A stretch of 63,747 bases of DNA, the filler included, from Rhabdomonas costata (lineage: Eukaryota): NCBI GenBank assembly GCA_019059605.1. It is 35 parts of 35 records of this genome, joined end to end, with 100 filler letters (N's around TTAATTAATTAA, not from the genome) between each part and the next. Parts side by side here need not be neighbours in the genome. Positions count along the whole stretch, not along the records: positions 54,734 to 56,456 come from JAHMHO010010061.1; 34 more parts are not named here. The stretch is one strand, 5' to 3'. Every line of letters begins with the position of its first letter. Position 1 is the stretch's first letter. A model generated the notes under the pieces. It saw only the letters and a program-made list of their open reading frames with translations. It did not search any database and was not told the origin of the DNA. Positions 13,035 through 55,834 of the stretch are shown here, one piece after another. The position numbers were made by a program, and so were the translations under genes.

Positions 13035-14249
13035 TTACGGCCCCGCCTTCCTGGCTTCCATGATGCAGAGCTCGCCCCGGAGCCGGGTCACCCCACTTAG
13101 CTTTAGCCCCGCCTGCTGGAACAGCTTCTCGAACTCCGGCAGGGTGCGCTCCCGGCCCCCCTCGTTCATCACCAGCATCGTGATGTCCCTCAGGGGTAGA
13201 GGACCCGTGGGGTTTGCATTGTCCAGCACGTCCTCGATGACGAGCACCCTCCCGCTGGGGTCCATCGCCTCTCGAATGGAAGTCAGAATCCGCTTGCACT
13301 GCTCGTCGCCCCTAAGTTTGGGAAAGATGTGGGAGGAAATGCCGGTTCGAGCGGCCAGCGAAATCGAAACAATCGCCTCCCATCGTTGGAAAGAAAACAC
13401 AAGCGTAATTTTCTTGCGGTGCTGGTTCCTCGGCTTGCGGTATGGCGGTTTGGGATGAAGTAAGCGTGGTTTGCCCTTTGGGTAGTTGCTTTTGCAGCAA
13501 GACGGAAAGGGGGCTGCGCATTCTGTGAAAGGTAGTTTGCTAACTCCCGGAATTCGGTCTAGGCAACTAAAAAGAACACAAAGGGCACACTATTTTAAGC
13601 TGCTGTCGCGCTAACTCAGGAAATGACGTCACATGTCAAAATGCATATACTATTTCCGCAGCGGCTCCCGGCAGCGAAGCAAAGGGCACAGATAATACAA
13701 CTCCGAAACCAAAAGAGAACGACAACCAGTCGTGAATAATAAATTTCAGCAAGTAGCAGTCCCCGCGAGGCACTGCCTGGAAGAAGTCCCCGCCCACACA
13801 CTCCACTCGCTCCGCAACCCCACACGAGGCCAGGTACGGGGGGGCCACAGCCACGGTCTCGGGAAGGTCAAAGAGAATCCCCTTCGCCCCGGGCAGCTTC
13901 TGAAGGACAAGGACCAACAGCGCCCCCTGGGACCCCCCCACATCCACCACCGTGTGGACCCCCGACCAGTCATAGTCCGAAGACGTGATCGCGCTGGAGG
14001 CCAGATTCGTCACCTCCTTCATAGCCTCCGAAAACTGAAGGCCCTCCTTGCGTTGCTTCTTGTAGTAGCTCCAAACGTCACTCCCCAGGGCTTCATGAGT
14101 GGTGCACTTGCCCGTCTTCACGGCCTTTGGAAGAAGACCGTAGGGGAGATAGTGCCCCGGCATGGTAAACATCGATACGAAGCTGCTCAGCGAACCCGGC
14201 GTCCCGGCCCGAAGAAGCTCCCCCGCAGGGGTCAGTGAGAACACAATGC
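13035..14249 (-). CDS. SAM-dependent class II O-methyltransferase (COMT/ASMT-like), last two exons
   Basis: Exons 14249-13727 and 13311-13035 with GT-AG intron 13726-13312. Motifs VVDVGGSQG, LFDLPE, GGDFF, KFIIHDW|GDE, GGRERT. Confidence 0.95.
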
Positions 14250-14600
14250 CTGCGACCGGGTCCATTGCTTATTCGAGGAAAACGTGCAGGATGACGGTCA
14301 GTGGGAGAGATAATCTCACAGCAATCGTCCGTGTGGTTCATGTCAAACGAGCTTGGTGCTTCACGGAGGTGCGGGGGTGGAGAGATACAACCATAACTGC
14401 AACTCGATTCCTACCGGTGATGCCAGTGAAAAGAAAGAGGGGTGGGGCCCCCGTTTACGGTCAACTTTAAAGCAACCATATGCAAGGGGCTGACCAACAC
14501 NNNNNNNNNNNNNNNNNNNNNNNNNNNNNNNNNNNNNNNNNNNNTTAATTAATTAANNNNNNNNNNNNNNNNNNNNNNNNNNNNNNNNNNNNNNNNNNNN

Positions 14601-42088: not shown

Positions 42089-43626
42089 GTCTCGGCCAGA
42101 GCAAACTTTCGAGGATGCTATTCAAGAACCTCGAGAGCACTCTGGAGGCCAAGCCTGCCTGCCTGATGGTGTTGTGGATCACCATCCCTCACACCGGTGC
42201 ATCCCATGAGGCCACCCAGGTCGTTCTGCAGAAGCTAAACCGCACCCGCTCCATCTTCGTGCAGAGGATGACGGGTGGTAGTTCGGCAGATTTCGAGAAT
42301 GTCAAGCTGTGGCTGACCACTGGGGTGGAAGACCCGAAGTGGCTGCAGGCCGTGGTACTGGACGTGGCATGTACGGCCGGGGACTCCTTTGCGGTGTATG
42401 AGCAGTGGAAAAGGTGCGACCCGCCTGCCCCTAAAACCCGTGCACATCTCCGTGCATAAACATCCCTTGGAAATGTTGACGGGGACAGCCCGTGTGAGCT
42501 TCTCACCACCAAACCGATGAGCTATTTCACCTTAGTTTGTTTTTTGGGTACCACTGTTTTATCAATTGCGTGTCTCCGTGGACGCGTCTATCAGTGATTT
42601 TCTCTGGTAATCCCTAACCTCTGCGGAACAGAGATGGCTGTCCACCTGCGGTACCCAGTAGATGGTGAGAGGTTGTTGCTCAGAACTAAGCTGAACAGAG
42701 GTGGACCCACATCAAGGAGATGGTGCGGGAAGCATCACCTTCCTAAGAATACACCAAAACGGCACCCGCAGCTTTGGAAAACTGAAAGGTTTGGAAATTC
42801 CCGTTCTAGCGTTTCTTCCTTCCCCATCTATGCGGAAGTTCTTGCTGTGGTTGGTAAGCGTTTTCTGCTGTCTGTTCTGTCCCCTTTGCAGTGCAATGCG
42901 GGTCGTCCTGAACCATCCCAAGGTTAAGGACTCTGGCTGGGTGAAGGTCGTCACTTGCGCTGTCGGCTACGAGGGAAGGCCCTTCCCCTCGGGCGGCGAC
43001 AGCGCCACCCTCCAGAAGCTTCTGCTCAGCACCTCAGAGTCGGGCGAGAACGTCCCCACCGCCGCCTGCGTGACCTGTTTGGGTGGCTCTGCAAGCTCAC
43101 CAGAGAAAACCACACCGCCTGCAAGACCCCCTACTGTAGCCACCAAGCCTGTGCTGTGGACTTGTGGGGATCTGCAGCAGAAGGTGCATTTCATTTTCAT
43201 TAGCGGTTCCCTCAAGATTAGTATAACTCTATGATGACAGATCGCTGGTTACCCTCCATGCATTCCTCGCGCAATCCTTCGGCGACATTGTGCGTTCTGC
43301 ATTCTGCGCTCTTGTAACCTTTACATAAGTCACCTCATATTCACCTCTCTCACGCCTCTCTTGGATGCCTGCCCCACAGGTTCTGGTCTTTGCATCAGTC
43401 AGCGGCACCGACGATATCATCGTCAACCAATTCCCCGAGACCATGCTGCAGATCACCACGCACTGGGTATGGGACTTTGGGCGGGAAAAGCCCGAGTATG
43501 CAGACCATCCCTACGACGTGGTAACCTCCCAAGAGATTGAGAGTGCGTACCGCAGCGGGCAACTCAGCGTGAAGGTCACGGACCGGCACATCCTGCACTT
43601 CCACGACATGGTGCAGAGGAACAGCG
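42089..43626 (+). CDS. WWE-domain protein, three internal exons
   Basis: Exons 42089-42413, 42892-43183, 43380-43626 are in phase. The last encodes HWVWDFG...PYDVVTSQEIESAYRSGQLSVKV...ILHFHDMVQRN. Confidence 0.8.
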
Positions 43627-43798
43627 GTGTGGACGCGCCCCTCCTCCCCCAACCACCTTTTTTGCAAATGGTACCACCAACNNNNNNNNNNNNNNNNNNN
43701 NNNNNNNNNNNNNNNNNNNNNNNNNTTAATTAATTAANNNNNNNNNNNNNNNNNNNNNNNNNNNNNNNNNNNNNNNNNNNNGGGTGGTTGGGTCGCAG

Positions 43799-45486
43799 CC
43801 CTCGGTAGGGGGGTCCTCTGCCGCCCCGAAGCACGAGATCCGCCACGAGGAGGGCGTGACGACGGTCAGCGGGGTGAAAGTGGTCGCCGTCAGGGACGAG
43901 GCCGCCGTGAGCCGTCTCCTTGCAACCGCCTCCAAGGTGGTCGCTCTTTTGCTCCCTCTCTCTGCCCGCCCACCGCCGTTCTCTCCTGGTCTTCTGTAAA
44001 AGGGGCGATTGCTCACAGACCGCTGTGTTGTGCAGTGCTCCTGTTTTACATGGCTTTTTGTTAAATTTCTGAGTTTTCCGTTAACTCCAACACACACGGG
44101 GACTATAGTGATTTTTTTTTCGTTTTCTTCTAGTCCTTCTCAAAATGAAAGGGACAATGCAATGAGTTGCCCTCCGTGCTGGCGCGGCGTCCTGTGTGTA
44201 TAAATATGCCTTCCTGTTTTTCCAGTTTTAATTCACAGCGGCAGTGTCTTTCACCATGCTACAATGTTTTGGCTGCATTTTGCTTTGGATTTTAGATCGC
44301 TTTCTTTCGCTTTCCAGAACCGGACGTTTGGGGAGACCCAGTGCAACGATCACAGCTCCCGCTCTCACTCCGTGTTCACCCTGACCATCACCGGCACCAA
44401 CGCCTCTACACAGCAGACCACCCGGGGCGTGCTCAATTTGGTCGACCTTGCAGGATCGGAGCGCCTGGCTCTCTCCGGGGCGACTGGGGAGAGGTTGTCC
44501 CTTTCAGTAGCACACACGCCCACATTCCAATGGTGTCTGAGGTGTAGCGGGGCGAACGTGCATGTGAACACGTACAACTCATCGAGCATATGTGCCACAC
44601 CACCTAGCGGAACCTGGGAACACAGGAACCATGAGAGGACATCAGCTCCACGTCATTTAGCGCGCTTTACGCGTAAATCACCCGCACTCGCTTAAAGCCA
44701 CCTCCACAAACCCTCGACGCGCATGCAACACGCAGAAAAATACGAGGCACACATCGACACACCGCCACACATCGCACGGATCCCCATTGAAGCTTTCATC
44801 CAGCATCCCGCGCACACACCAGCTTTTGCTGCAGTCCCCCTCCAAGTTACTCCTCACCCTTACACTCTGTTTGCTTTCCCGCAGTTTGAGCTCTGTACCC
44901 GTTTCCCGTACCTTCCGGCTTCTCATCGCTTTTTTGTTCCGTGCGTGTTAATTGCTGTTTGCACTTTTCCCGTGGACCTTTCGCTGAACTGTGGTGTCTT
45001 GTGTATACGAGACATGAATAAATGCACGTCTGGTGGTGTAGTCACACGAAAGCTCACACTTCGGGTAATGTTCACGGTTCTGTTTCTTCGACGTACGTAT
45101 ATCGAGGCCAGCGGACGCAAATCTTCACTAGATCTCACACTTCCAACATGGGAAATGTGAGGGACAGCACGATAATGGGAAAGCTCAGGAATCGAGACCA
45201 TCGCGATGTTGCAAAACCAAGCTGAAGAGGTTTCACTTCCTTACTCATTTGCGGAAGCAAGCGAAAGGGAGGAAATCACAACAGATGATGGAAGCAACCA
45301 ACAAACGGTGATTCGAGCAGACGTGCACGCCCTGATTTGCGGCGCGGCGCAGGAAGATTGAAACACAGCACATCAACAAGAGCCTGTCCTGCCTCGGCGA
45401 CGTCATCTCCGCGCTGGCTTCGAAGCAGGCTCATGTGCCCTTCCGGAACTCCAAGCTGACCTATCTCCTGCAGACCTGCCTTGGGG
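43799..45486 (+). CDS. Kinesin motor domain (kinesin-14/KIFC1-Kar3-like), three exons
   Basis: Exons 43799-43936, 44318-44493, 45353-45486: [56 protein letters not shown]. Confidence 0.97.
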
Positions 45487-45639
45487 GTCCGCTCCCCCCC
45501 CACCCNNNNNNNNNNNNNNNNNNNNNNNNNNNNNNNNNNNNNNNNNNNNTTAATTAATTAANNNNNNNNNNNNNNNNNNNNNNNNNNNNNNNNNNNNNNN
45601 NNNNNGTGGTAATGATACCGCTGAGTGTGTTTGTGTGTG

Positions 45640-51837: not shown

Positions 51838-52288
51838 GGAAAGATTGTGGAGTGAGGGGTGGGCGAGGAGGGGCACTTGGCACGTATCCATGTCAGCAGT
51901 TCTTGCTTTTGGGAGCAGGACAGCTGCTCCAGCTCCTCGCTGCAGCTTATCTTCACCAGTATAGCGCTGAGCTGCTCGGAAAGATTCTGTTGCAATTTAG
52001 GACGGGGGAGGTCGGGGGGTAAGAGGATGCCGATCCGATCTTGAGCTCTACAGACACCTTTCTTTATTCGACAATGCAAACAAAATGTAATGATATAAAA
52101 TGATGGCAGTCAGAACAGTCAGAACACCATTTCACGAGAGCTTCGAATAATGATTGGAATGAAAGGGTGTGGTGCAGTCCTTGCAATCGAGGTGTGCGTT
52201 CCTCCTTCGTGTGTTCGCAGTCACATCGCACATTTGCTTTGCTTGGGGGGCGCGTGTGTGTTTCTGTGTGGAGAGAAGAGGGAAGAAA

Positions 52289-52416
52289 ATGTCGCAGTGT
52301 CAGCGCTGCTTCCATGACTACGACGAGCACGAGCACAAGCCGCAGCAGCTGAACCCTTGCGGGCACTGTGCCTGCTTGAGTTGCACCCAAGAGCTCACTG
52401 GCGAAGGAGCTCCGCG
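52289..52416 (+). CDS. RING-HC finger protein, first exon
   Basis: MSQCQRCFHDYDEHEHKPQQLNPCGHCACLSCTQEL followed by a GTGAG donor. Confidence 0.85.
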
Positions 52417-52912
52417 GTGAGTCTGTATGGGTGCGTGGTTGTGTGGATTGTGAAAACGTGGTTTGCTGGGGCTCGTATGTGCAAGTTTGGACCAGCGATA
52501 GCGAAAGGATCAGTGCATCACAGTGTCTGCGAGAGGAGGTAAAACACAAAACACAAGGACCCTGGGCCCTCATCTTCTCTTTAAGAACTCACAGGTTCAC
52601 GTCCTTATTGGAATCATTGTGATTTTTCTGTTCTTGTTTTCCTTACAAACATCCACCATAACACTACCAAACATCCACCCATCCCCCGTAACCCCCTTTC
52701 AAGTCAAACAGCCTGCCTCTTCTCGGGTCGCGTACATCGCCCCGGCACTCCTCTGCGAGACCAAATAACCTTACAAACATCCACCCATACCCCACAACCC
52801 CNNNNNNNNNNNNNNNNNNNNNNNNNNNNNNNNNNNNNNNNNNNNTTAATTAATTAANNNNNNNNNNNNNNNNNNNNNNNNNNNNNNNNNNNNNNNNNNN
52901 NTTTTTTGTGGG

Positions 52913-52978
52913 TTAGGGTTAGGGTTAGGGTTAGGGTTAGGGTTAGGGTTAGGGTTAGGGTTAGGGTTAGGGTTAGGG
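52913..52978 (+). repeat. (TTAGGG)11 telomeric-type repeat, interstitial orientation
   Basis: The G-rich strand runs into the contig, opposite to a true left chromosome end. A second short tract lies at about 54087-54103. Confidence 0.95.
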
Positions 52979-54087: not shown

Positions 54088-54269
54088 GGTTAGGGTTAGG
54101 GTTATCGGCGCTGAACTTCCAAGGTGTCTGCGTACACAAGTGTGGTATTGCACCGCAGATAAAAAGGGAATGTATCCGCAATAGAGGAAACCACACCAAA
54201 GCACAGCTCGGGGTCATGGTATTTGCAAAAAAAAAAAAGTGAAAGAATCGAAAGCATGTGACACCGGAC

Positions 54270-54386: not shown

Positions 54387-54546
54387 CTGTCCGCCATCCC
54401 GAATCAAAGTAATACACAGCGCCGGCGCAAGGGCACTGATGGTGCACCGCCACGCACACTGTATGTACATTAGCTTTTTTCTTGGCATGGGGACCATTGC
54501 ATTGGGGGGGGGGGGGCGTTAACCGTTTTGGAACTTTATGGATCGA

Positions 54547-54627
54547 TTGGAACAAACAACATTACTTTATAGGAGGCGGCCAGCGCAGCGGCGGCTGTTT
54601 CCTATAAAGTAATGTTGTTTGTACCAA
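54547..54627. repeat. Long hairpin with 23-bp perfect core
   Basis: acaaacaacattactttatagga (54552-54574) and its reverse complement (54600-54622); pairing extends on both sides. Confidence 0.95.
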
Positions 54628-54781
54628 AAAAAANNNNNNNNNNNNNNNNNNNNNNNNNNNNNNNNNNNNNNNNNNNNTTAATTAATTAANNNNNNNNNNN
54701 NNNNNNNNNNNNNNNNNNNNNNNNNNNNNNNNNTCTGGGCTGGAGTGGGCCGAAGGGGCTGCGGCGTGGGTGGACGGTCAG

Positions 54782-55834
54782 GTCGCCGCCCACCGGAGGG
54801 TGTACGTGCACTGCAGCCAAGGGGTTAGCCGGTCCACGGCGCTGGTGCTGTACTGCTTGGGGCGGGTACGGGCAAGCCACAGGGGGGAAAGCGTGTGCTG
54901 CAGATTGATTGCGCTTAGCGCCATTACGTTTATCAGAATTCCTGCATGCCTCACGGGCTCTACGTTGTCAGCCAAGCCCACTCGTCGTGTCCTCGTGGGT
55001 TGTGGAGATGCGGGTCCGGAGGGGGGTGGTAGTTCGAGGCAGCAAGACAATTCTCCTGTTCTGAATTACATAAAATTACTGCATAGCACTTGACGTGTAT
55101 TACTTAGCCGCCGCTTGTCGAAAAACAGTGTCGCACGCACTTCCGCTTTCGGATATGCCCTGAACCACCACGTGCAATTTAATTACCCGACGGCGAATGA
55201 CCCTCGCCGAAGCCTTCGCGCTGATTCGGCGGGTCCGGCCTGTGGTGATGCCCACCACAGGCTTCTTCGCTGGGCTTGTGCAGGTCGAGAAGGATACCCT
55301 GGGCCTCGCCGAGTCGACGTTTCCCCTGGAGGTACATTTTCCTTATACCGGTTCGCAGTCCTGCAAACCCAAACTTTTTTTTATATTTGAGAATGTTGCC
55401 AGACATTAAGGCTGTGTTAATGCCGTCGACAGTGATGACCTGTCCTGTAGCCGTTATCTGTGCCTGTTGTGATAACTGCGGAGGTAGTTGTCTGCATCGC
55501 CGATGCAGTTTTCAACGCTTCTATTCCTCCATTCGTCTTCTCGACCGGAAGCTTGCATTCCCCAATTCTGCCTTCTGTCCCCTGCATCCAGGCGTACACT
55601 TTGATGGCCCTGCGGGAGATGTTCCCCTCAGTGGACCCCGCAATTGTGAACGGCGTCTTGCAGCGGGCCACCGCGGCCCTTGCCGAGCGGGGCGCTGAGG
55701 AGGAGTTCCGCGGGAAAGTGGGCAACGCGGCGATCTTCCCTGTGGGCTACCTGGCAGTAGACCTACTTCGGGATGAGCATCCCGAAGCACTGGTGCGGCG
55801 CAAGGGATGCACGCTGCACCATCCCTTTGATTAA
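54782..55834 (+). CDS. Dual-specificity phosphatase with C-terminal CUE-like segment, last three exons
   Basis: Exons 54782-54871(or 54865), 55194-55331, 55592-55834: VYVHCSQGVSRS, MTLAEAFALIRRVRPVVMPTTGF, LREMFPSVDPAIVNGVL. Confidence 0.92.

Follow-up and report, generated by a model that had tools for sequence, protein, structure and literature searches.

We analysed a 63,747-base window of DNA from Rhabdomonas costata, in which 35 independent contigs of 1,721-1,732 bp each are chained in roughly descending order of size through 34 linkers (about 50 N, TTAATTAATTAA and about 50 N again). Because the window is an artificial chain of contigs, adjacent genes in it are unlinked and features are truncated at every contig edge. 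The contig at 54734-56456 carries a dual-specificity phosphatase (DSP) gene of which the 3' two-thirds remain, the 5' part being lost at the contig start, and it is the first intron of this gene, 322 nucleotides (nt) in length, whose ends concern us here. The features of the gene and of this intron are the following.

54734..54871 (+): DSP exon 1, encoding ...VYVHCSQGVSRSTALVLYCLGRVR, with matches to Pfam DSPc (E=1.5e-5) and, in the PDB, to DUSP3 and others
54863..54868 (+): CGGGTA, an alternative 6-bp partner of TACCCG 55184-55189, perfectly complementary to it
54868..54871 (+): ACGG, copy 1 of a direct repeat, at the 5' junction of intron 1
54869..54872 (+): CGGG, which could pair with 55186-55189 as the 5' side of a 4-bp terminal stem, read from the sequence
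54872..55193 (+): intron 1 in its GC..GG placement, 322 nt, the length being set by ortholog spacing and the frame requiring a length of 1 modulo 3
55161..55163 (+): TGA stop in frame with exon 2, so that any acceptor must lie downstream of it
55184..55189 (+): TACCCG, which would supply the 3' side of the terminal stem or stems, from the complementarity listing
55190..55193 (+): ACGG, copy 2 of the direct repeat, at the 3' junction of intron 1
55194..55331 (+): DSP exon 2, RMTLAEAFALIRRVRPVVMPTTGFFAGLVQVEKDTLGLAESTFPLE, recognised by Pfam DSPc, by a PDB alignment with DUSP10 ('RMTMTDAF') and by the orthologs
55332..55591 (+): intron 2, 260 nt, a conventional GT-AG intron whose pyrimidine tract is rich in C (pyrimidine fraction 0.73)
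55592..55834 (+): exon 3 with its TAA stop (55832-34), encoding a conserved C-terminal domain that ends in ...RRKGCTLHHPFD

The predicted coding sequence is the catalytic part of a DSP followed by a conserved C-terminal domain ending in HHPFD, and it is split by two introns. Residues 8-38 of exon 1 correspond to positions 62-92 of the Pfam DSPc profile and residues 2-33 of exon 2, counted from 55194, to positions 101-132; each half on its own scores under the Pfam cut-off, and the contig does not reach the N-terminal part of the domain. The catalytic motif VHCSQGVSRS is intact and presents the HCxxGxxR(S/T) loop of PF00782. The G+C content at third codon positions (GC3) is 0.79 over 616 training codons, these exons included, and the codon usage of the exons is clearly unlike that of intron sequence. 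Like the atypical DSPs (PF00782; DUSP3, DUSP10, DUSP16, DUSP18, DUSP21), the product carries the HCxxGxxRS loop and the helices that follow it; unlike them, it is fused to a C-terminal domain of about 80 residues ending in (K/R)RKGCSLHHPFD.

The reading frame of exon 1 continues into non-homologous sequence and then a stop, and MTLAEAFALIRRVRP... lies in a different frame, downstream of the TGA at 55161-55163. The initial annotation had placed this stop ahead of the exon encoding MTLAEAF, and we confirm that it is in the frame of the ATG at 55197. Because the DSPc profile is divided between two frames with stops between them, an intron is required.

A full HMMER search with exon 3 returned ten proteins at E <= 1e-3, three of them at E <= 1e-10, with 34-46% identity over the full domain and, in addition, a 58-residue fragment at 69%. 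Six of the ten (P0220, P0222, P0224, P0225, P0226 and P0227) consist of a DSP domain followed by the C-terminal domain ending in ...GCSLHHPFD, and the other four, which have no DSP part, comprise fragments, a 171-residue protein and a 2,451-residue repeat protein. Together P0218-P0227 form a small family recognisable by the C-terminal domain of about 80 residues and its (K/R)RKGCSLHHPFD end, usually situated behind a DSP domain; the 2,451-residue relative carries 16 matched stretches of it. The domain appears to be undescribed, Pfam giving for exon 3 a weak CUE match (E=6.8e-4) that lies under its cut-off.

The orthologs set the length of intron 1. The distance from CxQG[IV]SR to GF is 35 residues in all six of them, and because only removal of 322 nt reproduces this spacing, the length is fixed at 322 nt; joins of 325, 328, 331 and 292 nt leave 34, 33, 32 and 45 residues. 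Removing 322 nt joins ...GGGCGGGT(ACGG)CGAATG... to give YCLGRVRRMTLAEAF, the predicted spliced sequence across the junction being GGGTACGGCGAATG, or ...GGGCGGGTACGGCGAATGACC.... The initial annotation had obtained the same product from the GC donor and had described its spacing as usual for a DSP, which the six orthologs bear out. In alignment A1, exon 1 (...YCLGRVR) meets exon 2 (RMTL...) without gap or overlap, opposite YYLMTRE|NMTL; the ortholog alignment of exon 1 reaches YYLMTRE. The eight DSPc profile positions that separate the two halves equal the eight residues left by this join, and in the PDB DUSP18 and DUSP21 have exactly this spacing and DUSP16 has one residue less. We also scored the three-exon product against a hidden Markov model (HMM) of the six orthologs: the 322-nt join reaches 183.0 bits (E=3e-57), compared to 183.2, 179.0, 176.2 and 179.4 bits for the 325-, 328-, 331- and 292-nt joins and 165.2 bits for 54876-55212, the one canonical GC-AG join scored. 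The HMM alone cannot tell 322 from 325 nt. It is the ortholog spacing that shows where the junction of the predicted mature message lies.

No conventional pair of ends fits this junction. There is no AG in 55164-55198, as the initial annotation had stated for the interval between the stop and the ATG at 55197, and the nearest AG before that ATG is at 55127-55128, giving an AG-free stretch of 69 nt; at the AG frequency of the window (0.0628), the chance of finding no AG is about 0.125 over 33 nt and falls to about 0.012 over 69 nt. Two donor candidates, GT at 54866-67 (intron of 328 nt) and GC at 54872-73 (322 nt), each keep the frame. The GT donor had been offered as an alternative on this ground, but it leaves the loop two residues shorter than in six of six relatives. 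We enumerated 50 open-frame joins with GT/GC-AG or AT-AC ends and none of them preserves the conserved spacing; the joins that end in AG all rely on the AG at 55211-12 or the one at 55259-60, which removes MTLAEA. The earlier claim that an intron is needed and that it cannot end in AG thus holds.

The direct repeat ACGG reported at the two junctions is present at 54868-71 and 55190-93. It permits the intron to slide by 4 nt; among 20,000 random junction pairs from the window, 1.73% can slide by at least 4. The final four nucleotides of exon 1 are therefore assignable to exon or intron, and the 322 nt have five equivalent placements: 54868-55189 (AC..CG), 54869-55190 (CG..GA), 54870-55191 (GG..AC), 54871-55192 (GG..CG) and 54872-55193 (GC..GG), none of which is GT/GC-AG or AT-AC. 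Because the repeat makes these placements equivalent, a 'CGG acceptor' is one of five descriptions of the same intron, GC..GG being a single one of them, and the proposal of a new acceptor class with a CGG 3' end is not upheld. Four of the placements have a purine as the last base of the intron, and only 54870-55191 has a C there. Intron 1 has a pyrimidine fraction of 0.53 and no run longer than 3, compared to fractions of 0.70-0.73 in three of the four conventional acceptors of the window and 0.50 in the fourth, and a TTAAT is located 11 nt from the intron end. In the GC placement, the intron begins with GCAAGC and its acceptor is GG.

The euglenid nonconventional introns, to which the initial annotation had pointed, are the most fitting known precedent. 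They often have direct repeats at their junctions, and a stable secondary structure that draws the two ends together is typical of them. In Euglena gracilis they are removed later than the conventional introns.

Published accounts describe them as common. They represent 16,151 of the 28,337 mapped introns (57%) of E. gracilis, where 11,653 of 28,337 are termed 'ss-variant' (PMC11170887), and 71.8% in Euglena agilis, with 'slidable' introns at 84.4% (PMC12501133). Since they are so common, one more example would be unsurprising in a euglenozoan. Their terminal dinucleotides are not considered the signal (PMC4770533, PMC12501133); the most conserved feature is a pairing of positions +4..+6 with -8..-6, in which +5,+6/-8,-7 are always paired (55/55 introns, PMC4770533), later formalised and tested as the code 5'-N3CDG-/-CH'GN5-6|R-exon, with N3-CGG...CCG as an experimentally validated variant motif and with 38.8% of the nonconventional introns of E. 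agilis falling outside the code (PMC12501133). A purine is preferred at the 5' end of the intron and at the start of the downstream exon, and a pyrimidine at the end of the upstream exon and of the intron (PMC4770533); a downstream exon starting with C is disfavoured (PMC12501133) and is found in 0/55 cases in the set of PMC4770533. An 'intermediate/nonconventional' subtype is also distinguished among euglenid introns (PMC3935182, PMC4770533, PMC11170887, PMC12501133).

Intron 1 resembles these introns in several respects. Its borders are not GT-AG and are blurred by a short direct repeat, a purine can stand both at its start and at the start of the downstream exon, a GC 5' end is possible, and its 322 nt fall in the usual length range (mean about 517-539 nt, minima 30-36). 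In the placement 54868-55189, the intron starts with a purine (A), the upstream exon ends with a pyrimidine (T) and the downstream exon starts with a purine (A), so that three of the four end preferences given in PMC4770533 are seen, the exception being the G at the intron end, and fewer are seen in the other placements. As in euglenids, conventional introns occur in the same gene, namely DSP intron 2, and elsewhere in the window (44494-45352 in a kinesin gene and 13312-13726, on the minus strand, in an O-methyltransferase gene); Pfam scans of 111, 39 and 68 open reading frames (ORFs) of the window revealed only three further introns, all of them GT-AG.

From these likenesses we consider it slightly better than an even bet that intron 1 is a nonconventional or 'intermediate/nonconventional' intron of the Euglenozoa kind. 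The likeliest verdict is that it adds a somewhat atypical case to the nonconventional introns already known and does not represent a new acceptor class. The intron would then be removed by a route independent of GT-AG and blind to terminal dinucleotides, as in euglenids and diplonemids, with cut sites at any of the five equivalent ACGG positions, and the GC placement would put it in the 'intermediate/nonconventional' subtype. That it is spliced at all, and via a nonconventional pathway, we infer from the sequence: it would be nonconventional by exclusion and by its repeat, and it would belong among the approximately 39% outside the published code.

Several observations weigh against this assignment, among them the pairing of the intron ends. 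Unlike in the Euglena introns, the +4..+6/-8..-6 interaction (CAG/CTG or CGG/CCG with spacers N3 and N5-6) fails at the ortholog-supported junction, and as read from the sequence none of the five 322-nt placements has complementarity at these positions. Introns of 329 or 330 nt would fit the CGG-CCG code perfectly but break the frame. The initial annotation had proposed that CGGGTA and TACCCG could pair across the ends; the two hexamers, at 54863-68 and 55184-89, are indeed perfectly complementary, but the predicted pairing of the ends is no stronger than chance, with pair probabilities of 0.06-0.17 for these hexamers and 0.17 as the maximum for the ends. In the placement 54868-55189, CGGG 54869-72 and CCCG 55186-89 could form a 4-bp GC stem at the base of the intron, level with the two junctions. 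This stem, the sole one at the ends, differs from those of Euglena introns in being flush with the cut sites and is not favoured in folding, its pair probability being about 0 in the full-length fold; further collinear complementarities are CAGGG/CCCTG and GAAAGCG/CGCTTTC. When we applied the 10+U7+10 fold described in PMC11170887 as a terminal energy test, the value was -3.7 kcal/mol for 54868-55189, which 20% of random pairs reach, and 0.0 for GC..GG. The full-length region folds worse than its shuffles (z = +1.77), and a construct of the ends only gives -25.2 kcal/mol versus -26.7 +/- 3.6 for shuffles, no better than 65% of them.

Other points on the same side concern the sampling and the host. 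Intron 1 is a single case in a low-quality, very fragmented assembly; no identical or near-identical protein is present in the collections searched with exons 2 and 3; and the sole taxon-labelled protein among the DSP relatives is from a dinoflagellate. A search with exon 2 against longer proteins found nothing. Finally, the GCAAGC start and the 69-nt AG-free zone resemble a spliceosomal donor and 3' region, a hint that the intron is conventional and its acceptor altered.

Comparison with other known systems yields partial likenesses. In some diplonemid species most introns lack GT-AG and have ends able to pair extensively (PMC12621601), in contrast to the minimal pairing of intron 1, which does not rise above chance. 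As in the introns of Amoebophrya described in PMC7789003, a direct repeat of 3-5 nt overlaps the exon/intron boundaries, it overlaps the 5' arm of the inverted repeat and directly follows the 3' arm, and the splice sites vary relative to the hairpin; the inverted repeats reported there are 8-20 nt long, versus 4-6 in intron 1, and those introners form repeated families, versus a single copy in our 63-kb window. A further difference is the TTAGGG type of the telomere-like arrays in the window. We thus rejected an Amoebophrya-type introner element, its direct repeat fitting but its inverted repeat of 4-6 bp and the lack of another copy in the window not. Like U2-type GC-AG introns, intron 1 has in one placement GC at +1/+2 and G at +5 (GCAAG), together with an AG-free zone; unlike them, it ends in GG and has a weak pyrimidine tract, and as read it was rejected as such an intron on its GG acceptor, its pyrimidine fraction and its longest run. 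The U12-type AT-AC joins that keep MTLAEAF add many residues, the shortest (54904-55186) adding 13 and scoring 172.3 versus 183.0 bits, and were rejected too. The same applies to a 292-nt intron at 54877-55168, which shows N3-CAG...CTG-N6 and a 5-bp CAGGG/CCCTG stem: the extra 27 nt resemble intron more than exon, 99.1% of 552 exon windows exceeding their score of -7.4 bits, the join adds ten residues absent from the orthologs (spacing 45 versus 35), and the downstream exon would begin with C. Because an in-frame pair conforming to the code arises in 13,105 of 20,000 shuffles (66%), the motif match of this intron carries no weight.

The main rival to a nonconventional intron is a spliceosomal GC-AG intron at 54872-55193 whose CAG acceptor reads CGG, either through a base-call or assembly error or through a real A>G change at 55192 in a null allele or decaying copy; we regard it as possible but unlikely. 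One substitution at 55192 restores GC...AG exactly at the ortholog-supported junction, and the GCAAGC 5' end has G at +5, the only prominent position of the E. gracilis GC-AG introns in the analysis of PMC11170887. The 69-nt AG-free zone upstream and the TTAAT at 11 nt from the end also suit it, one of the four conventional acceptors of the window is equally poor in pyrimidines (0.50), and the assembly is very fragmented. On the other hand, the ACGG repeat would then be a coincidence made by the changed base itself, which we estimate at about 1%, and the pyrimidine fraction of 0.53 with no run above 3 compares poorly with the 0.70-0.73 of the other three acceptors. The three intact exons, the intact catalytic motif and a GC3 of 0.79 also speak against this rival, and in a euglenozoan host an error at one given base is improbable next to how often nonconventional introns occur. 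The verdict thus depends on the host: a euglenozoan host makes the nonconventional reading much likelier, and elsewhere the base-change reading would win. A nonconventional intron with another junction, at 54866-55193 (GT..GG, 328 nt, with a 3-nt CGG repeat), 54866-55190 (325 nt) or 54866-55196 (331 nt), is quite improbable. Here the cut would fall 3 nt upstream of CGG 54869-71 as the code demands, N3-CGG...CCG being a validated variant motif of PMC12501133, the terminal energy is -7.0 kcal/mol for 325 and 328 nt, a value reached by 4.4% of random pairs, and the ortholog HMM does not tell the 325-nt join from that of 322 nt (183.2 and 183.0 bits). But the minimum over six candidate junctions hits -7.0 in 16.6% of random trials, the spacing becomes 34, 33 or 32 residues versus 35 in all orthologs, the 3' spacers are N1, N4 or N7 and not N5-6, and the 328-nt junction leaves a downstream exon beginning with the disfavoured C (PMC12501133; 0/55 in the introns of PMC4770533).

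There is similarly little probability that the gene is a dead copy in which the interruption is unspliced and the exons are relics. The failure to find an identical protein in the collections searched, the truncation of the gene at the contig start and an intron 1 that obeys neither the conventional nor the Euglena nonconventional rule are all in line with it, while all three exons are open, the catalytic and C-terminal HHPFD motifs are conserved, the product reaches 183 bits against the ortholog HMM, the codon usage of the exons is distinct from that of the intron, and intron 2 retains perfect GT-AG ends. A new mechanism, be it a class of spliceosomal acceptors ending in CGG, A-to-I/G-type editing that creates an AG, or nested (recursive) splicing, is very improbable. 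In its favour, a supplement on a heterotrophic euglenid contains the aligner-predicted boundaries GTGG and GCGG in 70 and 66 occurrences, these being unverified whole-file counts over overlapping tables, and because such boundaries are listed there, GY..GG calls do recur (PMC8219788); four manually curated nonconventional introns quoted in that source end in pyrimidines, not in GG. The CGG end is, moreover, one of five equivalent placements. Nested splicing, suggested by the initial annotation, meets the difficulty that any inner intron whose end fell within the AG-free zone would have no AG either, and for pre-mRNA editing, suggested with it, we found no support. To our knowledge, G>A is not a known direction of editing.

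Apart from the phosphatase gene, the window contains a number of features that we record here. The contig at 52902-54633 carries, 11 nt from its start, a telomere-type array (TTAGGG)11 at 52913-52978, with a short second copy at 54090-54101, and no TTTAGGG arrays are present in the window. A TTAGGG type is compatible with Euglenozoa and would suit them better than dinoflagellates, and to that extent counts for the nonconventional reading. At the end of the same contig lies a 40-nt inverted repeat (54547-54627; 85% complementary, arms 1 nt apart), just after a G run near 54505-54517, which could be a hairpin or an assembly fold-back. At 13038-14268 (-), an O-methyltransferase gene (PF00891) is split by a GT-AG intron of 415 nt (13312-13726); most of its best relatives come from bacteria or metagenomes, with at most 49% identity, and the gene may be of bacterial ancestry with an acquired spliceosomal intron. 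Two motor exons of a kinesin-14 (KIFC1-like), at 44318-44493 and 45353-45503 (+), flank the 859-nt GT-AG intron 44494-45352, whose donor GTTGTC is the same as that of the O-methyltransferase intron; the best kinesin relative is 78% identical. ORFs with a WWE domain (43329-43679 (+), E=1.1e-6) and with a RING-finger match (52163-52417 (+), E=1.2e-4) are probably single exons of larger genes. An Rfam scan of the window gave 0 matches, and thus no ribosomal, small nuclear or spliced-leader RNA.

We think it distinctly unlikely that the ACGG repeat is the real splicing position of a nonconventional intron without the +4..+6/-8..-6 pairing, its cuts being flush with the short repeat and the mini-stem. 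If this were true, a second, repeat-guided rule of GT-AG-independent splicing would be possible; alternatively, a conventional GC-AG intron may have been captured by the nonconventional pathway after the loss of its AG, or such splicing may operate in a lineage where it is undescribed. In practice, gene callers limited to GT-AG will break this DSP gene. A junction that is pinned by six orthologs and yet violates the Euglena code offers a test case for the roughly 39% of introns that the code leaves unexplained, and the combination of a GC-donor-like 5' end with an AG-free 3' zone makes intron 1 a candidate for conversion between intron types.

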